Shown here piece by piece: positions 1,667 through 56,944 of a DNA stretch of 64,000 nt; the first letter of the stretch is position 1; every line of letters starts with the position of its first letter. This DNA is from Dehalococcoidales bacterium (GTDB taxonomy: Bacteria; Chloroflexota; Dehalococcoidia; Dehalococcoidales; Fen-1064). Location of the stretch: NCBI GenBank assembly GCA_020342155.1, contig CP070842.1, positions 555,930 through 619,929 on the forward strand, written 5' to 3'. Below the pieces are notes generated by a model. That model had not been told where the DNA came from, did not search any database, and was given only the letters and a program-made list of their open reading frames with translations. The position numbers and the translations under genes are program-made.

Positions 1667-3256
1667 CTACCCAAGAATCTCCATTGCCTCATCACGGTAG
1701 GCATCCATCAGATAGGGTATTCCGGTAACCTTGGCACACTCCTCTGTTAGTGACATCAGGTCGCTCTGGGAGATTGCTGACACGCTGAAATTCCTGGAAC
1801 CGGCCATCAGCTGTTGAAGTCCCACTCGAATCTTCTCGGAGTAACTATAGATTCCGATTGCTCCCAGAGGTATATTCTGTATCTCCTCTGAGCCAACGAT
1901 GTTCTTCACATCTTCATAGTTCACGAATATCTCTTCCACACTTGACCCGAACTGCCCTACCGTATTGGGTAGTTTGCCTTCTTCCAGCCATCCACTTATA
2001 TTTCTGCCAACAAACCCGGGAATCATCAGTGCTCTACCCATGCAGACCGCCTTAGCAAATGGTGCACCCAGAGCAAGCGCCTTGAATACTCCGTCCTCGC
2101 TGCTGAAGGCGCCTGCGAAGGCGATGTCGGGAGGTCTCTCACCTTTGTCCGCCAGCTTCTTGCAGAACTCATATGCGGCTGAATGCAGGTATAAGCTGGG
2201 CATACCCCACTCTTGCATCATACGCCACGGGCTCATGCCGGTTCCGCCAGGAGCACCATCTATTGTGAGCAGGTCAATTTTCGCCTTGGAGCTCCACTTG
2301 AGTGCCATCGCCAGTTCACGTAGGCCGTAGGCACCGGTCTTCAGTGTGATACGCTGGAACCCCAGGTCTCTCAGACGCTGTACTTCCACGTAGAAGCTCT
2401 CTTCATCAATAAATCCCATTCGGCTATGTCGCTCGAACTCCTTGATAGCTCCTTCCTTAAAAGCGGCCTGGTTTACCGGATTTGAAGGGTCGGGAGTAAC
2501 GATGTAACCCCGCCTCTGAAGCTCCAAGGCTCGTTCCAGGCTACCTACCTTGATTTCTCCACCGATGCTCTTGGCACCCTGTCCCCACTTCAATTCAATG
2601 GTATCCAGGCCGTGTTTCTTGCTGACATATTCGGCCACGCCGAGCCTGGTATCCTCCACATTCATCTGGACCAGGATTTCTCCATATCCCTGGTGGTAAC
2701 GCCGGTATACCTCAATCCTGCGGTCCATGTCCGGCGCATTTACCACCTTACCACTGGAGTCGCGCTCCAGTTGCGGGTCGATTCCGCAGACATTCTCGCC
2801 GCACACCAGTGTAACGCCGCTTATGGCCGCACCGACAGCGAAGTGTTCCCAGTTCTTACGGGCAATCTCGGTCGAACCCAGGGCGCCGGTGAATATCGGT
2901 ACCTTCATCCTTACTTTCTTGTCCCAGCCATATTCGGTCTCAGTGCTTACGGTAGGGAATGTGGCCGTGTCAGGACTTGCTTCGACACCTTCCGGCAGTC
3001 CTTTGGCACCCAAAGCGTATCCCTGGATATTGAGATGTGAGTAGTCAACAGGATAATCCTTATCGCCACCGGCGGTTATCTCACCGAAAGGCCCGGGATA
3101 AATAAGCTCTCGACCACGAAAAGCGGCTTTGAACACCTCACAATTACCGGTGCAGGTATCAATACAGCGGGAACAAAGACCGCTCATCGGTACTACGCTT
3201 CGCGAGCGGTTCGCCGTCCTGGTAGCATCATTTGAGTTTGGCCGTGATAGATTCAT
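1667..3256 (-). CDS. Glutamate synthase (GltB) FMN-domain-like Fe-S flavoprotein
   Basis: N-terminal CSRCIDTCTGNC cysteine cluster plus a GltB domain-2-like TIM-barrel sequence (GGTGMSP, EWGMP). Start moved to ATG 3254-3256, preceded by AAGGAG 9 nt upstream. Confidence 0.7.
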   Translation of the reverse strand: MNLSRPNSNDATRTANRSRSVVPMSGLCSRCIDTCTGNCEVFKAAFRGRELIYPGPFGEITAGGDKDYPVDYSHLNIQGYALGAKGLPEGVEASPDTATFPTVSTETEYGWDKKVRMKVPIFTGALGSTEIARKNWEHFAVGAAISGVTLVCGENVCGIDPQLERDSSGKVVNAPDMDRRIEVYRRYHQGYGEILVQMNVEDTRLGVAEYVSKKHGLDTIELKWGQGAKSIGGEIKVGSLERALELQRRGYIVTPDPSNPVNQAAFKEGAIKEFERHSRMGFIDEESFYVEVQRLRDLGFQRITLKTGAYGLRELAMALKWSSKAKIDLLTIDGAPGGTGMSPWRMMQEWGMPSLYLHSAAYEFCKKLADKGERPPDIAFAGAFSSEDGVFKALALGAPFAKAVCMGRALMIPGFVGRNISGWLEEGKLPNTVGQFGSSVEEIFVNYEDVKNIVGSEEIQNIPLGAIGIYSYSEKIRVGLQQLMAGSRNFSVSAISQSDLMSLTEECAKVTGIPYLMDAYRDEAMEILG

Positions 3257-3459
3257 AACTGAGAACTCCTTTCTGTTATTGTGCCGTCTTACTAATAATA
3301 TCAAAAGATTGCGGTAAAAACAAGGCCTTATTTTGCCGCTTCATGGACTGACTGTGTCAGAAGAATGCCCTGGATCAGCTTTTTCTCGAAAAGTACCGGA
3401 ACCATAGCACCACAGCCCCTGAACCAAGGCCTAAATGGTCAAATTTCAGGAAGTTATTA

Positions 3460-3468
3460 TGATATAAT
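3460..3468 (+). promoter_or_regulatory. Extended -10 promoter element (TGATATAAT) upstream of FemAB-like paralog 1
   Basis: TGnTATAAT at 3460..3468, about 65 nt upstream of ATG 3533. It lies inside the longer 3365-start ORF, which argues for the shorter gene model. Confidence 0.4.
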
Positions 3469-3532
3469 AACGCTTAAAGTTCATCCTTCCAGAGTTTTAA
3501 CGGCCTTAGTAATAACCTCAAAAGGTTCAGTT

Positions 3533-4612
3533 ATGAGGATTAGAGAAGCCACCGCAGAGGATAGGGCAGCTTGGAATACCTTTGTCGATACCGAAGGTGG
3601 CGACTTTATTCATTATTACGACTGGAAGCAAACTTATGAAACCAGAGGCGACCAATTCATTCCACTCTTAGCCGAAAATGCAAAATCCGAGTTAATCGGT
3701 ATACTCCCCATTGTTAAAGAGAAAAGGTTCTTGTCTTCAATCCTCCATTCCGATATAAAGACAGGAGGCTTTTTGTTAAAAAGTGACCTGTCGGAAATGG
3801 AAAGATGCGAGGCAATTTCAGCATTCCTGGAATATGTAGAGGCATATTACTCCAAAGGGTGTTCCCGTTTCACATTAAAAGAGAACCTGCCATCCGCCGG
3901 CAAGCTGAGTGAGGAACCTACAACAATCCTAACCGATAACGGATTTCGGTTCAGATACGATGCACTAACCCACCTACCATGTACGTTTATCCTCGAATTA
4001 AAACAACCTTTTGAAGAGAACATCTGGAAAGGCTTATGGTCACACAATCTCAGGAAAAAACTCAATAAAGCTGGAAGAAAAGGTGTAGTTACTATTCAAG
4101 ACCCAGAGCTAGGCTATACTGATATCTTTATAGACATGGTAAATGAAAACTACAAACGTCACAGGAGCATCCCTCCAACAAGAGATGAGATTAAGGTAAC
4201 ACTGAATACGTTCAGGGATAAAGTAAAGTTGTTTATTACCCTGCTAGATAATAAACCAATTATGACATTTCTAAGTTATTACCATGCTTCAACATGCTTT
4301 CTGGCCGAAATCGGAAGTTACTCTAAGGATATCGAAGACATGAACATACTATGTTACATGACAGCAATTGAGGACGCCTGCAATGCAGGCTACAGGTTCG
4401 TTGACTTTTCATACACGGCAACATCTGGTCTGGCATTCTTTAAAGGGCAATTCAAAGGAACTAGAGTGCCTTTCAGAATATATGAGAAGAGATACTCAGT
4501 CCCAAGGACTCTTATAGAACTGGGTCCTGTTGTTATCAAGAAAGCCTGGCAGGATAAAACCTACATCTGGAAAAAGCGGCAGATATTGTGGGATAGGATA
4601 GTCCACTGGTAA
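3533..4612 (+). CDS. FemAB-like / Acetyltransf_6 (CelD-like GNAT-fold) protein, paralog 1 of 3
   Basis: 359 aa from MRIREATAEDRAAWNTFVDTEGG..YYDWK. Collinear with the two downstream paralogs, and the N-terminal pattern is typical of FemAB-like aminoacyl/acyl transferases (family assigned from memory). Confidence 0.6.
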   Translation: MRIREATAEDRAAWNTFVDTEGGDFIHYYDWKQTYETRGDQFIPLLAENAKSELIGILPIVKEKRFLSSILHSDIKTGGFLLKSDLSEMERCEAISAFLEYVEAYYSKGCSRFTLKENLPSAGKLSEEPTTILTDNGFRFRYDALTHLPCTFILELKQPFEENIWKGLWSHNLRKKLNKAGRKGVVTIQDPELGYTDIFIDMVNENYKRHRSIPPTRDEIKVTLNTFRDKVKLFITLLDNKPIMTFLSYYHASTCFLAEIGSYSKDIEDMNILCYMTAIEDACNAGYRFVDFSYTATSGLAFFKGQFKGTRVPFRIYEKRYSVPRTLIELGPVVIKKAWQDKTYIWKKRQILWDRIVHW

Positions 4613-4716
4613 GTTGTGTAACAGATAGAAAGAATTTCTCAAGGATCACATCGCACAGTGCCAATCAGTAGTAATGTATATGCGATATTTTACTGATATA
4701 CCAAAGGAAACCATAT

Positions 4717-5796
4717 ATGAAGATTAGAGAGGCTACCACACAGGATAAGGCAACATGGAACACCTTTGTTGATACCGAATACGGTAGCTTTCTTCAGTAT
4801 TATGACTGGAAGCATGTCTTCGAGAACAGGGGCTACACATATATCCCACTATTAGCTGAGAATAATGCAATCGAGTTAGTTGGTATACTTCCCATTATTA
4901 GAGAGAAAAGGTTTCTCTCCTCAATCCTCCATTCCGATGCACGAACAGAGGGCCTTTTATTAAAAAGTAACCTGGCAGACATGGAGAGATACGAGGTGAT
5001 TTCAGCATTCTCAGAATATGTGGATGCTCATTATTCCGACGGGTGTTCCCGCTTTACATTACGTGAAAGGCTTCCGTTAGCTGAAGAGATGAGTGAGGAA
5101 CCTGACACAGCTCTAATCGATAATGGATTTCGTTTCAGATACGACAAACAAGCTCATCTACCGTGTACGTTCATCCTGAAATTGAAACAACCTTTTGAAG
5201 AGAACATCTGGAAAGGCTTATGGTCACACAAATTCCGGCAGAAAATTAATAAGATCAAGAGAAGTGGTGCAGTTGTTATTCACGATCGCGAGCTGAACTA
5301 CGTTGATGATTTCATAGACATGTTCTTTGAAAACTGCAAACGGCACGGAACTACGCCTCCGACAAGAGAGCAGGTCATGTTTGAACTCCACACTTTCAGG
5401 GATAGAGTAAAGCTATATTTTGCCCTGCTTGATAACCAGCCTATTGTAGCCTTGCTATGTTACTACAGTGCTTCGACGTGTTGCCTATGGGAAATGGGAA
5501 GTTATGAGAAGGACACCGATAATGCTACTCTATTATGCTATACAGCAGCAATTGAGGAAGCCTGCAATACAGGCTACAAATTCGCTGATCTTGGATTCAC
5601 ATCAACACCCGGTCTGGCATTCTTCAAAGAACATTTTAGAGCAAACAGAATTCCCTTTACCGTTTATGAGAAGAGGTTCTCTATTCCCAGGACTATCATG
5701 GAAACGGCTCCCCGGGTAATTAAGGCAGCCTGGCATGATAAAACCTACCTTTGGAAAAAGCGACATAGACTATGGGATAGGATAATCCACTGGTAA
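4717..5796 (+). CDS. FemAB-like / Acetyltransf_6 protein, paralog 2 of 3
   Basis: 359 aa, MKIREATTQDKATWNTFVDTEYG..., aligns with paralogs 1 and 3 over the full length. Confidence 0.6.
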   Translation: MKIREATTQDKATWNTFVDTEYGSFLQYYDWKHVFENRGYTYIPLLAENNAIELVGILPIIREKRFLSSILHSDARTEGLLLKSNLADMERYEVISAFSEYVDAHYSDGCSRFTLRERLPLAEEMSEEPDTALIDNGFRFRYDKQAHLPCTFILKLKQPFEENIWKGLWSHKFRQKINKIKRSGAVVIHDRELNYVDDFIDMFFENCKRHGTTPPTREQVMFELHTFRDRVKLYFALLDNQPIVALLCYYSASTCCLWEMGSYEKDTDNATLLCYTAAIEEACNTGYKFADLGFTSTPGLAFFKEHFRANRIPFTVYEKRFSIPRTIMETAPRVIKAAWHDKTYLWKKRHRLWDRIIHW

Positions 5797-5933
5797 GAGT
5801 AGGGATGTAATGATAAAGTACATCCCTGCATCTAGATACCATATCAGAGTACTACTGAGAAAAGATGGGTGAACTCTATTGACTCGCTGGTTGCTCTGAA
5901 ATGAAATCGATGGGTATTAAAAAGGACGCCTAT

Positions 5934-7013
5934 ATGAGAGTTAGAGAGGCGACCTCAGAAGACAGGGAAGCATGGAACGCCTTTGTTGATACGGAAGGTG
6001 GTAGATTCATTCAATATTACGACTGGAAACCTGTCTACGAGAACAAAGGGGCGAAATACATTCCACTCTTAACCGAGAATGATTCATCCGAGATAGTCGG
6101 GATACTCCCCATTATCAGAGAGAAGAGGGCCCTCTCTTCAATTATCCATGCTGATACAAGAACAGGGGGACTATTAACTAAAACAAGCCTATCGGATACA
6201 GAACGATACCAGGTAATATCAGAACTCGTAAAATATGTGGACACACAGTACTCCAGGGGGTGTTCCCGCTTCACGTTAAAGGACAACCTCGCGTTGGCTG
6301 AAGAGATGAGTGAGGAAGCCTCAGCAGCTTTCATCGACAACGGATTTCGCTTCCGATATGATAAGCAAACACGTCTGCCATGTATTTTCATTCTAGAGTT
6401 AGAACAACCTTTCGAAGAGAACATCTGGAAAGGCCTGTGGTCGAGTAAATTCAGGCAAGAGATGAACAAGGTTAAGAGAAGTGGTGTCGTTATTATTCAA
6501 GACAGCGAGTTCCATTATGCAGATGTTTTTATAGACATGCTCTCTGCAAACTACAAACGCCATGGAACAATACCTCCAACAAGAGACGAGGTTATGACGA
6601 CATTGAGTATTTTCAGAGATAAAGCAAAGCTATTTGTTGCCCTACTCTACGACCAACCAACTGTGGTATTACTATGTTATTACTATGATTCGATATGCTA
6701 TTTAGCAGAAATCGGTAGTTATGAAAAGGACACCAGCGATGCAAATAAATTATGCTATGTGGCAGCAATTGAGGATGCCTGTAATGAGGGCTATAGATAT
6801 GCTGATTTATCAGTCGCAGCGACATCTAGTCTGGCATTATTCAAAGAGCGATTTAAAGCAACTAGAGTCCCCTTTATTATTTATGAGAAGAATTATTCTG
6901 TTATTAGGACTCTCATAGAACAGTTACCTGTCTTGACCAAACGAGCCTGGCACGACAAAACCTACATCTGGAAAAAGCGCCGCAAACTATGGGATAGGCT
7001 TGTTCATTGGTAA
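5934..7013 (+). CDS. FemAB-like / Acetyltransf_6 protein, paralog 3 of 3
   Basis: 359 aa when started at MRVREATSEDREAWNAFVDTEGG (ATG 5934, AAAGGA upstream). Same length as paralogs 1 and 2. Confidence 0.6.
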   Translation: MRVREATSEDREAWNAFVDTEGGRFIQYYDWKPVYENKGAKYIPLLTENDSSEIVGILPIIREKRALSSIIHADTRTGGLLTKTSLSDTERYQVISELVKYVDTQYSRGCSRFTLKDNLALAEEMSEEASAAFIDNGFRFRYDKQTRLPCIFILELEQPFEENIWKGLWSSKFRQEMNKVKRSGVVIIQDSEFHYADVFIDMLSANYKRHGTIPPTRDEVMTTLSIFRDKAKLFVALLYDQPTVVLLCYYYDSICYLAEIGSYEKDTSDANKLCYVAAIEDACNEGYRYADLSVAATSSLALFKERFKATRVPFIIYEKNYSVIRTLIEQLPVLTKRAWHDKTYIWKKRRKLWDRLVHW

Positions 7014-7084
7014 ACTATGTGATAATACGTAATCGTATTTCATAGGTATCGAATGAGTGAACTATTACGAAGGAATCATGGAAC

Positions 7085-8296
7085 ATGCCACCACTGGATA
7101 TTGAAAAGACCAAGGCAATAGTATTTAATTGCTATGTAGGCGGATTAGCAGTAATACGGTCATTAGGTCGCAGAGGTATACCTGTAGTGGCTGTTGATTA
7201 TCATAGAGCTGCTATTGGCTTTTCGTCCAGATATGCCTATAAGTCTGTTATTGCTCCCCACCCTGGAATAGACGAAGACGCCTTTATTAACTTCCTTATA
7301 GAGGGCGCCAATAAATGGGCGGGGAGCATCCTGATTCCAGCACATGATTTTGAGCTAGCCACTTTTTCACATTTTAAAGAAGAGCTATCCAAACACTACA
7401 TCATTCCGGTCCCGTCCTGGGAAGCCACTAAGAATATTGTTGATAAAAAAGGAACGTACGAGATTGCCGCAAGATTAGGTATTCCCATCCCGAAAACGAT
7501 TTCAGTAGACTCTGTTAGCTCGATGGAGACTCTGCAGGACAACCTGGATTATCCATGCTTGCTCAAACCACGCAAGGGATACGAATTTTTTTCAAAATCC
7601 AACCAAAAATCCTTCGTTATCAAGGATTCTGAGCAGCTTGAACCGGGGATAGACCAAGCAAACAAATTTGGCTGCGAGATGATGATTCAGGAGCTTATCC
7701 CTGGTGGGGACGACCAGTTCTACGAGTACATGGCCTACTACGACCAAGAAAGCAGACCGTTGGCTGAGTTTACCTGGCGGAAGCTGAGGCAGAACCCCCC
7801 GGTACTGGGGGTTGGCAGAGTGGGTGAAAGTACCCATTCGGAAGAAATCATTGGATCTAGTCGACAGATACTAGATGAACTATCGTTTGTGGGCCTGTGC
7901 GAGGTCGAATTCAAGAAAGATCCCAGGGATGGTAAATTCAAACTCGTTGAGATAAACGGCAGAAACACTTTGCAGATGGCCTTGCCGATTAGATGCGGTA
8001 TTGACTTTCCCTGGATAATGTATAATGACCTGGTATGGAATAACAAGCTGCAAGTCTCAGAATACCAGAATGGCGTTAATTGGATTAATGAACTGGCCGA
8101 CATCCCGTCTGCGATTCGACACCCTATTCGAGAGAAACCCTTGACCAAAGAGTATTTGGTTCCTTATTTCTCACCAAAGACTTACGCCATTTTCGCTACG
8201 GATGACTGGAAGCCAGCTATCATGGCTTGGTATCATAGTGCGAAGCGCCGATTCCTGTCCATGCTGAGAATATCTACAAGTGTTTTTACTTTGTGA
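7085..8296 (+). CDS. ATP-grasp superfamily carboxylate-amine ligase (COG3919-like)
   Basis: N-terminal Rossmann-like VFNCYVGGLAVIRSLGRRGIPV, central ...LLKPRKGYEF...MIQELIPGGDDQ..., and EVEFKKDPRDGKFKLVEINGR typical of the ATP-grasp fold. Confidence 0.7.
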   Translation: MPPLDIEKTKAIVFNCYVGGLAVIRSLGRRGIPVVAVDYHRAAIGFSSRYAYKSVIAPHPGIDEDAFINFLIEGANKWAGSILIPAHDFELATFSHFKEELSKHYIIPVPSWEATKNIVDKKGTYEIAARLGIPIPKTISVDSVSSMETLQDNLDYPCLLKPRKGYEFFSKSNQKSFVIKDSEQLEPGIDQANKFGCEMMIQELIPGGDDQFYEYMAYYDQESRPLAEFTWRKLRQNPPVLGVGRVGESTHSEEIIGSSRQILDELSFVGLCEVEFKKDPRDGKFKLVEINGRNTLQMALPIRCGIDFPWIMYNDLVWNNKLQVSEYQNGVNWINELADIPSAIRHPIREKPLTKEYLVPYFSPKTYAIFATDDWKPAIMAWYHSAKRRFLSMLRISTSVFTL

Positions 8297-8340
8297 TAGA
8301 TAAGCGCAAGGTGTCTTGGGCATAAAAGACGTAACGGCTC

Positions 8341-9054
8341 GTGCTGAAGGTGAGAATGAGGAACAAAGTAGTCGGCATCCTGGGCGGAATGGGACCGGAG
8401 AGTACGGTATATCTATTCCGTAAGATAATCGAGGGAACTCAGGTACAGAAAGAACAGGAGCACCTCAGAATAATCATCGATAACAACCCGCAGATTCCTG
8501 ACCGGACAGAAGCCATCCTGGGAAAAGGGCCCAGTCCACTACCCGAACTCGAAAAGTCCATTCGGAACCTCGAACAATGCGAAGTCGATATGATAGGTAT
8601 CCCGTGTAATACCGTTTTTTATTACTATGAGTCTATACAGAATATGACACAGATACCAATAATCCATCTAATCAGTGAGTGTGCTGAATATATCCGCGAG
8701 AATATGCCACGATTGCATACGATAGGTCTACTGGCTACCACTGGTACAATCGTAACTGGACTTTACCAGAAACATCTCTCAGAGGCTGGCATTACATTAG
8801 CATGTCCTTCGGAAGAGACTCAAAGTGAGCTAATGAGTATAATATATGGCGAGCGGGGCATCAAAGCCGGTGATACCCGTAGACACAGAGAGAGGTTGTT
8901 AGAAATAGCCACGGATATGATAGAGGACGGGGCAGGTGCAGTAATTACTGGCTGTACCGAAATAGAAGTGGCACTCGAAGGAGAGCCAAGTATTCCCCTT
9001 ATCTATCCAATACAGTTATTGGCCTCTGCCATTATAAAAAAGGCAACGAGTTAA
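8341..9054 (+). CDS. Aspartate/glutamate-family amino-acid racemase
   Basis: GILGGMGPEST, catalytic-Cys contexts GIPCNT and TGCTEI, ~230 aa. GTG start is uncertain. Confidence 0.8.
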   Translation: MLKVRMRNKVVGILGGMGPESTVYLFRKIIEGTQVQKEQEHLRIIIDNNPQIPDRTEAILGKGPSPLPELEKSIRNLEQCEVDMIGIPCNTVFYYYESIQNMTQIPIIHLISECAEYIRENMPRLHTIGLLATTGTIVTGLYQKHLSEAGITLACPSEETQSELMSIIYGERGIKAGDTRRHRERLLEIATDMIEDGAGAVITGCTEIEVALEGEPSIPLIYPIQLLASAIIKKATS

Positions 9055-9082
9055 AACCCGGTTTTCCAGTCGAATATCTGAA

Positions 9083-10645
9083 CTAAGGGAGATTCACCTC
9101 GAAATCTTCCCAGGCGTCAAGCTCTTCACGGTACGGGTCTACCACTAACCGGCACGGAACATCGAAAAGCATCGTGGCGCGGTTACTAGCAGCATATGGT
9201 TCCCATTTTGGTATATCCGGGTGGTTAGGGTCGCCACTACGTGCAAAGGCAAGCCACGCCTCGCTCATCGATGTAGCCAGCTCGTATCTATCAGAGCGCT
9301 CACCAGTAAGGGCCGCCTCATCGACATTGTTAAAAATGAACGGGATATCGAGACCATGACATGCTTTGAAGAGGTATCCGAGGTAGTCAGACTCCCAGGT
9401 AAGCAGGTACATATAGACCGGGACATCACTGGCTGCCGCCTTACGCTCAGCGAGTCGAATAGATGCCAGCCTGAATCCTTCACTCGTAATCCCGATTAGC
9501 AAGTCCCAGGGCGTGGCATCAGGCCGTGTCTTCTTATAAACGCTGAGTATTCTATCCAGTCTATCACCGAGCTGGGGGGCTAATCGCTCGCGTAACTCAG
9601 ATTCTTCAAGTCGCCGCCGCCGTTGGTCAGCCGCCAGGAAGAGTGCCGACTCGTCCCGATTACAGCCAATCACCAGCGGGACATCCGCCGCTGTCGGTGC
9701 TGCCACGGGGTCAAACGGATGGGCAGGTAGGTAGTTGCCGTCCACTACCGGGGCAAATCGCATGAGGGCTCCACCGGCTACAGGTACACCTATCATACCA
9801 TCGGCAGTCCGCTCCACTAATATCCTGTTCACAGCTTCGAGCAGCTCATTTACCGGCATTTCCTGAAGTTTTTCAATCTCACTTGCCTTAATATTCAGTC
9901 CTGCCAGCAGCTGTTTGGTCATGCCTGTAGCCTCCTCGGACTCTACCCCTCGCAGCCCCGGGCCACTCTGTATAACAGCACGGTGAAACAGGCCCTTTGC
10001 CGAAGGCATGGCCAGCATCTTGCCAACCTTGCTGCCACCGCCGGATTCACCGAAAATCATTACGTTGCCCGCGTCACCGCCGAACTCACTGATGTTGTCC
10101 CGGACCCACTCCAGAGCCAGCACAATATCCAGCATTCCGGCTACACCTGAGCCAGCATACTCCTCACCAGCAATATCTTCCAGGTGCAGGTAACCAAAGA
10201 CATTGAGCCGGTGGTTGATTGTTACCACGACGACATCACCACGTTTGGCCAGTGCGGCGCCATTATACATTACGGACGAACCTGAACCCGTCCCAAAGCC
10301 ACCACCATGAAGCCAAACCATAACCGGACGCTTGCCACCATCTCCCATGGCTGATGTCCATATATTCAGTACCAGGCAGTCTTCACTCTGAGGCAACACT
10401 CTGACCTGCCCAAAGACAGGTCTGGCTGCTCTACCTTCGTCTGCTACTTGTCCTACCTGCGGACAGGTTGGCCCATAGTCAGTGGTGTCACACACACCCA
10501 CCCACGGCTCGGTTGGTGTCGGTGGCAGGAAACGACGATTCCCGCCTGTTGACGCACCGTATGGTATACCTTTAAAGGTAAAAACCTCTCGTTCCATTGT
10601 GCCACGTATTTTCCCCGCAGTTGTTTCGGCAATAATCTCGCTCAT
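9083..10645 (-). CDS. Type-B carboxylesterase/lipase (PnbA-like)
   Basis: FKGIPYGA...RF N-terminal motif, HGGGF oxyanion region, and nucleophile elbow GESGGG. Confidence 0.85.
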   Translation of the reverse strand: MSEIIAETTAGKIRGTMEREVFTFKGIPYGASTGGNRRFLPPTPTEPWVGVCDTTDYGPTCPQVGQVADEGRAARPVFGQVRVLPQSEDCLVLNIWTSAMGDGGKRPVMVWLHGGGFGTGSGSSVMYNGAALAKRGDVVVVTINHRLNVFGYLHLEDIAGEEYAGSGVAGMLDIVLALEWVRDNISEFGGDAGNVMIFGESGGGSKVGKMLAMPSAKGLFHRAVIQSGPGLRGVESEEATGMTKQLLAGLNIKASEIEKLQEMPVNELLEAVNRILVERTADGMIGVPVAGGALMRFAPVVDGNYLPAHPFDPVAAPTAADVPLVIGCNRDESALFLAADQRRRRLEESELRERLAPQLGDRLDRILSVYKKTRPDATPWDLLIGITSEGFRLASIRLAERKAAASDVPVYMYLLTWESDYLGYLFKACHGLDIPFIFNNVDEAALTGERSDRYELATSMSEAWLAFARSGDPNHPDIPKWEPYAASNRATMLFDVPCRLVVDPYREELDAWEDFEVNLP

Positions 10646-43468: not shown

Positions 43469-46400
43469 TTAAGCCCTCCTTATGTTGCATAGGAAGGTCT
43501 TGTACTCCGGGATGGTAGTGTTAGCATCGCCGACGTGCGGAGTAAGAATATTACCGCTATCGCCCTTAGCCATACCGCTGTATCCAAAGTGCCAGATTAC
43601 GCCGATGTGGTAAATGGTCTTGCCACCCACCGTCAGCGGCGGGAAGCGTTTGGTCACGATGGCCACGGCGCTAATCTCTCCCCGGGCAGTACTGACTGTC
43701 ACCATGTCTCCGTTCTCAATACCCTTGTCTGCGGCCAGTTCTTCACCCATCTCTACATACATATTGGGCATGAGCTCCACCAGCCAGGGGAGGTTCCTCG
43801 TCATGATGCCGGTCTGCCAGTGTTCGGTGCAGCGGTATGTGGTGCCCACATAAGGATACTGCTCAGGTGTTCCCTGCTGATTGCGATATGTGCCGATAAA
43901 GGAGCAGGGATTAATCTTGGTGCCCGACATCAGGTTTTCATCCAGAGGGCTTTCCCAGGGCTCATAAACCTCCGGCACTGGCCCCTCGGCCAGGCCGTAA
44001 CCCCAGAGACGTGCCACCCCTTCCGGTTTCATAATAAAGGGGAGGTACTTTGCCCCGTTCCCGGCTTGGTTGATTGGAGGCCAGCCCCCATCGGCGATAT
44101 CGCCCTGCCATTTCCCCTGACCGTACGAGATGACCGGGTGTTCACTGTCCCAGGGCACCCCATCAAGGTCAACCGAAGCCCGGTTATAGATAATACGTCG
44201 GTTGACCGGCCAGCACCAGGCCCAGTTGGAATACAGACCGATTTGCTGGGGATGCGTATCCACCGGGTCAGTTTTCTTGGCCTTATTGCCGTCTGTCTCG
44301 GTATACATGTTACAGTAGAGCCAGTTTCCCGAACTGGTAGTACCATCATCCTTGAGGGAGCCGAAGCTGGCCATCAACTGGCCGGTTGAGTCATAGCCGT
44401 TTATCTCTCTTGCTACCGCATCGGCCGTGATGTGGCTCCCATAGTCCCAGTCCAGCTCCACGACTGGCTTCGCCAGCGGACGGCTGTCCGCCTGATAAAG
44501 CTCTTTCAGCTTCAGCATAACCAGGTTCATAATCTCAAGGTCAGGCATTGCCTCTCCCGGAGCTTCCACCGCTTTATAGCGCCATTGTGCCCAGCGGCCG
44601 CTGTTAGTGATGCTCCCCTCCTTTTCGTAAGAGCAGGCCGCCGGGAGGATGAATACCTCGGTCTTGATATCAGCCGGTGCAACCCCAGGTCTCTTCCAGA
44701 ACTCGGCTGTCTCGTTCATCCATATATCAGCGGCGACCAGCCAGTCCAGGTTTGCCAGAGCAGCACGCGCCCCGTTAGAATTGGGGCCACCCGATGCCGG
44801 GTTCTGTCCCCAGTTCCAGAGTCCCTTAATTGTGCCCTGACCCATCGCCTCAATCATCCCGATGTGAGTGTAATTCAGACTGGGGTCACGTTTCGGCAGG
44901 TAGTGAAAACAGAAATCATTACTTTGGGTAGCCGCATTGCCGTACCAGGCTTTGAGCAGGCTCACCACATACTTCTTGTAGTTGCCCCACCAGTTGGCAC
45001 TGGTGTCTCCGGCGAGGCCCTGAGGCGTGATGGTTGACGGGCGAGCTCGTCTGAGGTAGTCCTCAAGGTCAGCGTCACCCTCTACCGGAGCCACCAGGTA
45101 CCCTGGCAAGATGTGGCTTAGCAGACACATGTCAGTCGACCCCTGGACATTGGAGGTGCCACGTAGAGCGTTGATACCGCCTCCAGAAACACCCATGTTG
45201 CCCAGCAGGAGCTGGAGTATGCCATAGGCCCTGATATTCTGGGTGCCATAGGTATGCTGGGTAGCCCCCATAGCATACATGATGGTACCAGCCTTACCTC
45301 GCTGTCCGGTAGCACTGTATGTCCGGCATATCTCCCGATAAACATCCTTGGGGGTGCCGGTAATATTACAGACGGTATCGATGTCGTAGCGGGAGAAGTG
45401 ATTCTTAAGCAGTTGGAAGACACAGTTTGGGTTTTCTAGGGTGGGGTCTGTGTCTGGAGTGGCGGTATCGGCATATTGCCAGCTCCCCCTAGATGCGGCT
45501 GTGTACTTGCCATCCTCCACTTCACCAAAAAGCCCATCATGAAAGACAAATTCCTGATTGACGATAAAGGAGGCATTGGTGTACTGGATGATATATTCCA
45601 TATTGTAGTTGGCAGGATTATCCGCAATGTCATCGAGTACGTATTTTATCATTCCACCGATGAAGGCGATGTCTGTACCCGACCTCAGAGGTGCATAGAT
45701 ATCGGCCTTAGATGATGTCCGGGTGAAACGCGGATCAACATGGATAAGCTTGGCCCCCCTGGCCATTGCTTCCGACACCCACTTGAAGGATATAGGGTGG
45801 TTCTCCGCGGCATTAGAGCCAATTATCATGATGCAGTCGGCATTTTGGATATCAATCCAGTGATTGGTCATGGCCCCTCTACCAAAACTCTCCGCCAAAC
45901 TGGCGACGGTAGAGGAGTGTCAGAGCCGGGCACAGTGCTCTAGATATACCACTCCCAGTGCCCGGTTCATCTTGGCAAGCAGATAACACTCTTCGTTGTC
46001 CAGTTCACCACCGCCAAGGCAAGCAATCGCGTCAGTCCGGCCCATTGCTTCATTCCAAGACGCGTCACGGGTAGACTTGACCCTCTGGGCGATGGTATTT
46101 ATCATCCAGCCCCAAGACTTCTCCTCCCAGTCAGCCGAGTTCGGTGCCCGGTACAGGGGCGTGGTTAGGCGGTACGTGTTAGGTTTGCCATTTACTTGGT
46201 GAATCTGGGCCATAGCCAGCCCCTTGGGGCAGAGTGACCCCTCGTTGACGGGATGGTCAGGGTTCCCCTCTATCTTGATAATGCCATCCTCATAGTCGGC
46301 TACAATGGCCCCGCAACCAACCGAGCAGTAGCAGCAGATGGTGGCTGTCTCTTTGACCCTTGTCTTTAGCTGCAATTCCTTAGGAGCAGCAATTACAATC

Positions 46401-46483
46401 CCTTTCGTGTCAAAGGTGAGCACCGCTGCGGCACCGATTCCCGCCCCCGAGAACTTCAGAAAGTCTCTACGGTTTAGTCTCAC
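43469..46483 (-). CDS. fdnG: Tat-exported, selenocysteine-containing formate-dehydrogenase-type molybdopterin subunit (FdnG-like); in-frame TGA at 45920..45922
   Basis: ORFs 45920..46483 and 43469..45898 are in the same frame (3015 nt). RRDFLK Tat motif and CCYCSVGCG [4Fe-4S] motif. Junction reads EHCARL-TGA-HSSTVASLAESFGRGAMTNHW, the conserved Sec/Cys active-site context. A hairpin follows the TGA. Confidence 0.85.
45876..45922 (-). promoter_or_regulatory. UGA(Sec) codon plus putative SECIS hairpin
   Basis: mRNA reads UGA-CACU-CCUCUACC-G-UCGCC-AGUUU-GGCGG-AGAGUUUU-GGUAGAGG. The 8-bp lower stem and 5-bp upper stem start 4 and 13 nt after the UGA. Confidence 0.55.
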
Positions 46484-56867: not shown

Positions 56868-56944
56868 TGGTGGGCGGTAGAGGATTTGAACCTCTGGCCT
56901 CTGCGATGTCAACGCAACGCTCTAACCAACTGAGCTAACCGCCC
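56868..56944 (-). tRNA. tRNA-Val(GAC): tRNA-Val (anticodon GAC), CCA encoded
   Basis: Reverse complement folds as a cloverleaf: GGGCGGU/ACCGCCC acceptor, GCUC/GAGC D-stem, UUGCG-UUGACAU-CGCAG anticodon arm, AGAGG-UUCAAAU-CCUCU T-arm, ACCA end; 77 nt. Confidence 0.9.

Follow-up and report, generated by a model that had tools for sequence, protein, structure and literature searches.

During our analysis of a 64,000-nucleotide stretch of the Dehalococcoidales bacterium contig CP070842.1 (GenBank assembly GCA_020342155.1, positions 555,930 to 619,929, forward strand), which we refer to as the window, we examined a compact cassette in which three tandem Fem-like transferase genes (fem1, fem2 and fem3) are followed by genes for an ATP-grasp carboxylate-amine ligase and an aspartate-type racemase. 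The five collinear genes had been put forward in an original prediction made from the DNA letters and their open reading frames (ORFs), and all of them are present on the forward strand (Table 1). The cassette lies in an island of low G+C content (GC), its genes having values of 0.41-0.46 where the flanking genes have 0.52-0.55 and the window as a whole has 0.49, and the same contrast between cassette and flanks was seen in a syntenic contig, L065, from a close relative. Peptidoglycan synthesis is the textbook setting of both Fem transferases and D-aspartate ligases.

Table 1. Features of the cassette and its immediate surroundings, in window coordinates (aa, amino acids; PLP, pyridoxal phosphate)
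Feature	Position	Strand	Basis
fem1, Fem-like double-GNAT transferase, 359 aa	3533..4612	+	PF13480; start set by paralog/homolog alignment
fem2, Fem-like double-GNAT transferase, 359 aa	4717..5796	+	PF13480, AlphaFold (AF2) model, Foldseek
fem3, Fem-like double-GNAT transferase, 359 aa	5934..7013	+	PF13480; ORF open back to 5901
ATP-grasp carboxylate-amine ligase, 403 aa	7085..8296	+	weak Pfam/NCBIfam matches, AF2 model, fold search
PLP-independent aspartate-type racemase, 237 aa (232 aa from ATG 8356)	8341..9054	+	PF01177, TIGR00035
Low-GC island carrying the cassette	3305..9082	none assigned	GC contrast with flanks
Promoter-like site TGGTCA-16-TATGAT upstream of fem1	3436..3463	+	consensus scan
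Structured fem2-fem3 spacer, including perfect 9-bp hairpin 5801-5827	5797..5933	+	folding energy
Glutamate-synthase-like gene, left flank of island	1667-3304	-	
Carboxylesterase gene, right flank of island	9083-10645	-	

The Fem proteins, predicted to be diverged paralogs of one length, each have 359 residues and align with zero gaps at 64-65% pairwise identity (65% for fem1 and fem2, 64% for fem1 and fem3, and 64% for fem2 and fem3). The ratio of nonsynonymous to synonymous substitution rates (dN/dS) in pairwise comparisons of the three genes was 0.15-0.25 at a dS of ~1, from which we conclude that the copies are old, intact and under purifying selection. Variation among the paralogs was spread evenly, with no hypervariable segment that might determine specificity and a weak correlation between arrays (r = 0.31). 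Their C-terminal 24 residues are conserved and include four tryptophans, the net charge being +5 to +7, and at the other end the paralogs and 60 homologs all begin M-R/K-I/V-R-E-A-T. The public annotation of fem1 (NCBI, 415 residues, ATG at 3365) appears to be N-terminally over-extended by 56 codons (3365-3532); the extra segment has no counterpart in any homolog and covers a conserved promoter-like element. Since the N-termini of the homologs agree and this element falls inside the extension, we took 3533 as the start of fem1, and the left boundary of 3460 given in the original prediction falls in the promoter region, where no gene starts. An AAGGA ribosome-binding site precedes the fem3 ATG at 5934.

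In profile searches all three paralogs passed the PF13480 (Acetyltransf_6) gathering cut-off of 22 bits (fem1 26.2, fem2 36.6, fem3 32), while of the two families to which they might have been assigned the second, PF02388 (FemAB), was matched below threshold by fem2 (20 bits vs a cut-off of 24) and not at all by fem1 or fem3. Among NCBIfam models the top match was TIGR03019 (PEP-CTERM FemAB) at 32.4, 43.6 and 40.6 bits, and because these scores lie far under the cut-off of 260 bits we place the paralogs outside that family; the peptidoglycan-specific FemX model gave 22 bits vs a cut-off of 500. An AF2 model of fem2 built with 60 homologs had a mean predicted local distance difference test score (pLDDT) of 88.4 and a predicted template modeling (TM) score of 0.84. 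Its best Foldseek match was the Weissella transferase FemX_Wv (7z5y; E-value 7e-18, TM 0.73/0.77, ~346 columns), followed among Protein Data Bank entries by Staphylococcus aureus FemA and FemX, the streptothricin-type enzymes Sba18/Sbb17 solved with streptothrisamine (E-values 7e-14 to 8e-13, TM up to 0.79 on the target), and MprF/aaPGS domains, which hold ranks 12-25. All 25 of the top 25 matches are aminoacyl-tRNA users, and CoA-dependent tandem GNATs ranked lower. The proposed FemAB-like fold was thus borne out as a double GNAT whose nearest solved structures are all aminoacyl-tRNA-dependent transferases.

A catalytic Phe-Lys pair has been described in this superfamily, being Phe304-Lys305 in FemX_Wv and Phe328-Lys329 in DhpH-C (PMC12945691). 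In the window paralogs Lys304, with Phe303 before it, is invariant across 60 family members, and in distant members of the superfamily the equivalent position is lysine in 91 of 91 aligned sequences, preceded by F, Y or W in 88 of the 91. Judging from the motif, Phe303-Lys304 probably corresponds to the catalytic pair of FemX_Wv. We found no genes for tRNAs or aminoacyl-tRNA synthetases near the cassette, the sole tRNA in the window being tRNA-Val at 56868-56944, and a PADLOC search with the five cassette proteins returned zero defence-system matches.

The ligase (locus tag JSV77_02970) was matched weakly by Pfam and NCBIfam ATP-grasp models, and its assignment comes from structure and conserved residues. 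The AF2 model (pLDDT 95.7) matched 2pn1 with an E-value of 8e-20, followed by biotin carboxylase, PurK/PurT and L-amino-acid ligases, among them RizA and BL00235, with E-values of ~1e-17 to 1e-20; the matches were spread over ATP-grasp enzymes generally and did not narrow the substrate class. Residues K161, E275, K277, N291 and R293, including an E-I-N-G-R motif, are invariant, and on the evidence of the model the ligase is an ATP-grasp fold with intact nucleotide- and Mg-binding residues, as the gene had been read at the outset. Although several homologs are automatically named 'D-aspartate ligase' in the Joint Genome Institute (JGI) database, Pfam and NCBIfam scans of the ligase gave no match to a curated model for the D-aspartate ligase Asl. 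An ATP-grasp protein 65% identical to that of the window (P0078) is labelled Candidatus Thorarchaeota, and in another lineage a 62%-identical ATP-grasp gene adjoins genes for BacA and an AsnB-like amidotransferase. On the Priestia megaterium plasmid NZ_CP085448.1 (L068, 7022-11225) an ATP-grasp protein 32% identical to that of the window, annotated as 'carbamoyl-phosphate synthase', forms one unit with a PIG-L deacetylase, a GT4 glycosyltransferase and a kinase; this unit is set amid spore-coat and exosporium genes and recurs on dozens of Priestia plasmids.

The racemase, expected to be of the Asp/Glu type, matched PF01177 with 135 bits, the aspartate racemase model TIGR00035 with 207.6 bits (cut-off 93) and the cysteate racemase CuyB model NF052483 with 225.7 bits (cut-off 190); CuyB belongs to the Asp-racemase family (PMC11193023). 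It aligned over its full length with the Pyrococcus horikoshii aspartate racemase 1jfl (E-value 4e-57), and both catalytic cysteine motifs (PCNT and GCTE) align with those of 1jfl, which identifies it as a two-cysteine, aspartate-type enzyme. No cuyA or sulfonate genes were found near it. The racemase gene begins 44 nt past the ATP-grasp gene, an order kept in L065, and its start is ambiguous, being either GTG 8341 (237 residues) or ATG 8356 (232 residues); in the longer form, residue 9 is the first to align with 1jfl, and the ortholog in L065 is 234 residues long.

The closest relatives of the cassette are in loci L065 and L066, which are syntenic with the window in having the same upstream gene (92% identical at the amino acid level) followed by one fem gene, the ATP-grasp gene and the racemase gene in the same order. 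The L065 Fem protein is 74% identical to fem2 and 66-68% identical to fem1 and fem3, and the ATP-grasp and racemase proteins are 80% and 79% identical to their window counterparts; the downstream flank differs, being a major facilitator superfamily (MFS) transporter in L065 and an esterase in the window. The five-gene set itself was found nowhere else. What recurs is a trio, and because L065 and L066 carry a single fem gene with ligase and racemase we regard fem-ligase-racemase as the co-conserved unit. The racemase was limited to these closest relatives and was absent from ~47 other loci.

The number of fem copies per locus ranges from 1 to 8 (1, 2, 3 and 8 were seen). The dS between the fem paralogs is ~1, compared with 0.55-0.64 between the two genomes for ligase and racemase, a pattern that, as far as these sequences go, suggests either that the fem duplications predate the split between the window lineage and L065, with L065 having lost copies, or that the array is subject to birth-and-death turnover. 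A clean fem1/fem3 chimera from unequal crossover was considered as the origin of the L065 gene, the N-terminus of which is slightly nearer to fem1 and the C-terminal half nearer to fem2, a pattern that was not decisive. In a neighbor-joining tree the paralogs cluster by genome, which points to lineage-specific expansion or homogenization rather than to anciently fixed roles. With this grouping and the copy number of 1-8, the earlier picture of three sequential transferases was not borne out. The largest array, in L001/L002/L012 (5454-14490 of a 25-kb contig; JGI Ga0315554_1000417, NCBI CAZTBG010000012.1), has eight tandem Fem-like genes, of which one is a canonical FemAB-positive gene of 352 residues and seven, of 359 or 360 residues, are 67-82% identical. 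Near-identical spacers of 53-54 nt separate the genes of this array, and its flanks hold a deacetylase, an ATP-grasp gene, a homolog of phosphatidylserine decarboxylase (PSD), an HTH_17 gene and a DegT gene.

The fem clade has few members, with ~75 clusters at 90% identity among 5.8 billion and 43 representatives at 50% identity with an E-value of 1e-30 or less among 1.84 billion, within a superfamily of ~4,300. All members come from metagenomes or metagenome-assembled genomes, and the only organism names among them are Dehalococcoidales or Dehalococcoidia. A scan of a genome collection with fem patterns returned two loci, and one of these duplicates the eight-copy array. Of 48 non-redundant loci with fem homologs, 15 have an ATP-grasp gene of the same family (28-32% identical over its full length) as a neighbor, as do 8 of the 13 loci whose flanks extend 1.3 kb or more in both directions; the gene usually follows directly downstream on the same strand.

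Beyond this pair, the family is linked to glycan genes. Its neighbors include polysaccharide deacetylases (~12 loci), DegT sugar aminotransferases (6, with L001, L014, L018, L025 and L030 among the loci), GT1 glycosyltransferases (6), Wzx-type flippases (4) and DUF2206 membrane proteins (4), together with GT2 glycosyltransferases, UDP-sugar dehydrogenases and a sugar nucleotidyltransferase; GT1, deacetylase and flippase genes occur in L028-L036. A membrane-anchored PSD homolog (135 bits) lies beside the ATP-grasp gene in L001 and L007. [quoted passage not shown] In L005/L006/L034 the pair of Fem-like and ATP-grasp genes is found amid archaeal-type neighbors (Pilin_N, TrmB, a KaiC-like ATPase and DUF2206). 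These archaeal-looking contigs and the Thorarchaeota label of P0078 suggest either that sediment archaea and Dehalococcoidia have exchanged genes or that sequences were mis-binned.

The host, a metagenome-assembled genome with a contig of 2,295,986 bp, bears the label Dehalococcoidales, and an ancestral reconstruction places the loss of core peptidoglycan genes at the ancestor of this order (PMC10284905); the host is therefore probably without peptidoglycan. We scanned the larger ORFs of the window, covering most of those of at least 150 residues, and found no mur, mraY, pbp or ftsW gene among them or in ~50 related loci. As the original prediction had stated, no glycosyltransferase, Mur ligase or transporter adjoins the cassette, and the scanned ORFs held no glycosyltransferase, Mur ligase or other envelope gene. 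The only transporter-type genes among the scanned ORFs, for a SBP_bac_5 solute-binding protein and BioY, are unrelated and ~40-50 kb away, and the other ORFs encode redox enzymes, two-component and sigma-54 regulators, and proteins of glycerol metabolism, riboflavin synthesis and stress responses.

Taking these observations together, we propose, with a probability of about 0.5, that the cassette forms amide bonds and builds a short D-amino-acid-containing peptide on an amine-bearing acceptor of the envelope, the likeliest being an amino sugar of a surface glycan. The acceptor had been left open in the original prediction and can now be narrowed, as the loci with deacetylase, DegT, glycosyltransferase, flippase and UDP-sugar dehydrogenase genes point to an amino sugar; we favor this over a free natural product because the related loci are surface-glycan clusters. 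This amino sugar would belong to the precursor of an S-layer or cell-surface glycan on the cytoplasmic side of the membrane, its amine having been exposed by deacetylation or transamination. The racemase would convert the L-form to D-aspartate or to its sulfonate analog D-cysteate, as its family leads one to expect, and the ATP-grasp enzyme, by analogy with Asl/AslA, would activate the carboxylate as an acyl phosphate and join the D-amino acid to the acceptor amine. Each of the three Fem proteins may then use aminoacyl-tRNA as donor and transfer glycine or an L-amino acid to a free amine, which could be that of the sugar or the alpha-amino group on the last-added residue; donor, acceptor and order are all putative here. 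The paralogs might act in succession in the manner of FemX, FemA and FemB, or they might differ in donor or acceptor specificity, and gain or loss of tandem fem genes would alter the length or composition of the peptide.

Several observations weigh against this proposal. The cassettes of the window and L065 have no adjacent deacetylase, sugar aminotransferase, glycosyltransferase or flippase, and so the glycan acceptor is borrowed from relatives that are 40-68% identical. Conversely, no locus with a glycan context carries a racemase. The match to the FemAB model was sub-threshold, and PF13480, which the paralogs do pass, also spans enzymes such as HfsK with a donor that is unknown or possibly acyl-CoA. 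A putative orthology of the ligase to characterized Asl enzymes comes only from automatic JGI names, and the clustering of paralogs by genome disfavors sequential roles fixed long ago. The biochemical steps set out above are all predicted, from motifs, models and analogy.

Each part of the cassette comes from a known enzyme class, and the pairing of Fem-like and ATP-grasp proteins has a partly characterized precedent. In the type B flagellin locus of Clostridioides difficile, CDR20291_0244 encodes a FemAB-like protein, 0245 an ATP-grasp protein, 0246 an ornithine-cyclodeaminase-like protein and 0247 an FdtB-like aminotransferase, and the product is Fuc3N capped by taurine, alanine and glycine, a peptide amide-linked to an amino sugar; mutants of 0245 and 0246 lose the cap, and 0244 and 0247 could not be mutated (PMC5207246, PMC5207245). 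The FemAB-like gene stands next to the ATP-grasp gene as in the window, whereas a DegT aminotransferase and glycosyltransferases are found only in relatives of the window, which itself has neither, and the C. difficile locus has a single Fem-like gene and no racemase. The likeness is one of gene types, the individual C. difficile enzymes being biochemically uncharacterized.

The joining of the ATP-grasp and racemase genes has its own counterpart in the operon of Lactococcus lactis that holds aslA, for an ATP-grasp D-Asp ligase, and racD (PMC4155827). In the Asl_fm/AslA and RacD systems of Enterococcus faecium and L. lactis, as in the window, an ATP-grasp gene adjoins a gene for a PLP-independent Asp-type racemase, but the window racemase also passes the cysteate-racemase model and most ATP-grasp genes of the family have no neighboring racemase. 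The Asl acceptor, the stem peptide of peptidoglycan, is excluded for the window ligase if the host is wall-less. The FemX, FemA and FemB proteins share with the window paralogs the double-GNAT fold, the Phe-Lys motif and the encoding of several paralogs together (as femA-femB). Because the FemA coiled coil is absent from the paralogs we consider them FemX-like, although they are only 16-18% identical to FemX and fall under the cut-offs of PF02388 and the NCBIfam FemX model. They further differ from FemABX in the probable lack of peptidoglycan in the host, in the copy number of 1 to 8, and in having relatives whose neighbors are glycan rather than mur genes.

A Fem-like precedent for modification of a sugar amine is offered by Sba18/Sbb17 and Orf11, which acylate that of streptothrisamine in an aminoacyl-tRNA-dependent manner (PMC12945691); unlike the window proteins these enzymes have ~285 residues, are encoded in Streptomyces secondary-metabolite clusters and occur as single copies, with neither an ATP-grasp enzyme nor a racemase as partner. 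TIGR03019 proteins and the Caulobacter pair HfsK/HfsH resemble the relatives of the window in that Fem-like GNATs are encoded with polysaccharide deacetylases (in exopolysaccharide loci), HfsK being a GNAT of this Fem-like kind, with an unknown donor and a genetic link to the deacetylase HfsH (PMC5362036); these systems are proteobacterial and, in contrast to the window, lack an ATP-grasp or racemase partner. New here are the distinct, rare and uncharacterized Fem clade, its union in one cassette with an Asl/RacD-like pair, the probably peptidoglycan-less lineage, and the tandem arrays of 1-8 copies.

These precedents also frame the other explanations that we weighed. An unlikely one is that the cassette makes a soluble, tRNA-dependent peptide or metabolite, such as a D-Asp oligopeptide, an antibiotic or a compatible solute, with no glycan involved, after the manner of dehydrophos, pacidamycin and streptothricin. 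The cassettes of the window and L065 are self-contained and without glycan genes, an MFS transporter adjoins that of L065, the L007 fem homologs lie beside PqqD, ABC exporter, NTP_transf_5, formyltransferase and B12 radical-SAM genes, Fem-like natural-product enzymes are established (PMC12945691) with Sba18/Sbb17 among our top structural matches, and the L-amino-acid ligases RizA and BL00235 were among the fold matches of the ligase. No scaffold-forming, tailoring or resistance genes accompany the window cassette, however, a small precursor-peptide ORF of plausible kind was not found in its spacers, and the dominant neighbors of the family are deacetylases, DegT proteins, glycosyltransferases and flippases. 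Somewhat less likely again is that the Fem-like proteins are N-acyltransferases that use acyl-CoA or another donor to re-acylate deacetylated amino sugars, as has been proposed for HfsK and HfsH of Caulobacter, with copies that differ in acyl or acceptor specificity. This would agree with PF13480, an 'acetyltransferase' family, being the only model passed, with the frequent co-occurrence of polysaccharide deacetylases, with the precedent of HfsK and HfsH (PMC5362036), and with the presence of acetyl-CoA-dependent tandem GNATs lower in the fold list; yet aminoacyl-tRNA users make up the whole of the top 25 structural matches, the Phe-Lys motif, which in FemX and DhpH-C serves aminoacyl transfer (PMC12945691), is invariant, and racemase and ATP-grasp partners suit peptide rather than fatty or acetyl chemistry.

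We regard as improbable an acceptor that is a lipid head group (phosphatidylethanolamine, phosphatidylserine, phosphatidylglycerol or an aminoglycolipid), in which case the Fem-like proteins would carry out MprF-like aminoacylation or peptidylation of lipids. MprF/aaPGS domains are strong matches, a PSD homolog neighbors the ATP-grasp gene in L001 and L007, and the basic C-terminal tail with four tryptophans is of a kind often seen in membrane-interface helices, but binding of tRNA would suit this tail just as well, neither a transmembrane nor a flippase domain is present in the paralogs, the window and L065 carry no PSD homolog, and genes for sugar modification are far commoner as neighbors than lipid genes. 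The most obvious reading of the gene set, an ordinary peptidoglycan cross-bridge in which Fem adds L-amino acids or glycine and the ATP-grasp enzyme adds D-Asp to the stem diamino acid of lipid II or UDP-MurNAc-pentapeptide, we consider very improbable. The enzymes fit both known cross-bridge routes, that of Fem and that of Asl with racD (PMC4155827, PMC2922099), FemX_Wv is the best structural match, and ATP-grasp homologs bear 'D-aspartate ligase' names in JGI. Against this, the host order is reported to lack core peptidoglycan genes (PMC10284905), the ~50 related loci, some of them archaeal-looking, hold glycan-modification genes and, like the window, none of the wall genes searched for, and the FemX model was missed by a wide margin; it is the host lineage and the absence of wall genes from all loci examined that lead us to disfavor it. 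The original prediction had likewise deemed a peptidoglycan role unlikely should the host prove to be a wall-less organism of the Dehalococcoidia type, which its Dehalococcoidales label now supports.

A broader form of the proposal that the cassette decorates a surface-glycan amino sugar, which we think rather doubtful, is that after the loss of peptidoglycan the Dehalococcoidia kept or re-acquired cross-bridge chemistry, in the form of Fem-type tRNA-dependent transferases and an Asl-like ATP-grasp ligase, and use it to write short mixed L/D peptides on S-layer or other surface glycans, with fem arrays that grow and shrink between 1 and 8 copies setting length or sequence. If so, the template-free surface peptide would amount to a fast-evolving surface 'barcode', the gene pair for which would be shared by some sediment archaea. 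Whatever the acceptor, the finding brings Fem and D-Asp-ligase-type enzymes together in one conserved cassette, in a lineage believed to be without peptidoglycan, on archaeal-looking contigs and in surface-glycan loci, and it suggests that tRNA-dependent, non-ribosomal addition of peptides to glycans may extend beyond the single, partly dissected example of C. difficile flagellin. The defined five-gene set and the natural comparison of one copy with three offer a way into the role of Fem proteins outside the cell wall and into the relation of paralog number to product length, and the cassette bears on how uncultured Dehalococcoidia decorate their envelopes. Since the family is small and without a cultured representative, any biochemical result would be new.

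The non-coding parts of the cassette were also examined. The promoter-like element upstream of fem1 has 9 of 12 consensus matches in a consensus scan, which alone is not above chance; in L065, however, the region upstream of the one fem gene has preserved both the element and the sequence around it. The perfect 9-bp hairpin noted after the second paralog is real and proved to be part of a larger structured spacer: the 137 nt between fem2 and fem3 fold with -44.8 kcal/mol (z = -5.2) and a 56-nt core with -23 kcal/mol (z = -5.5), and the other spacers of the cassette are unstructured. Lacking a T tract, the hairpin does not qualify as a canonical intrinsic terminator, and an Rfam search over 3200-9300, the fem2-fem3 spacer included, found no riboswitch, T-box or other known RNA. 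The first ~45 nt past the fem1 stop codon (spacer 4613-4716; GTTGTGTAACAGATAGAAAG...) are similar to the spacers that recur in the eight-copy array (GTTGTGTGACAAGATACAGGGAAAG...), and the spacer between fem3 and the ligase gene has its homolog between fem and ligase in L065. To judge by these alignments, the likeness of the spacers suggests that the unit of duplication includes the spacer and that the arrays are perhaps older than the by-genome grouping of paralogs implies.

Elsewhere in the window, a molybdopterin oxidoreductase gene (43469-46483, reverse strand) is split into two ORFs by an in-frame TGA at 45922-45920 (...CPAL-TGA-HSS...). The TTG at 45898 of the downstream ORF is in frame, and genes for Fer4_11 and NrfD subunits come next. 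From its sequence context, the TGA looks like a selenocysteine codon within a molybdopterin oxidoreductase of ~1000 residues.

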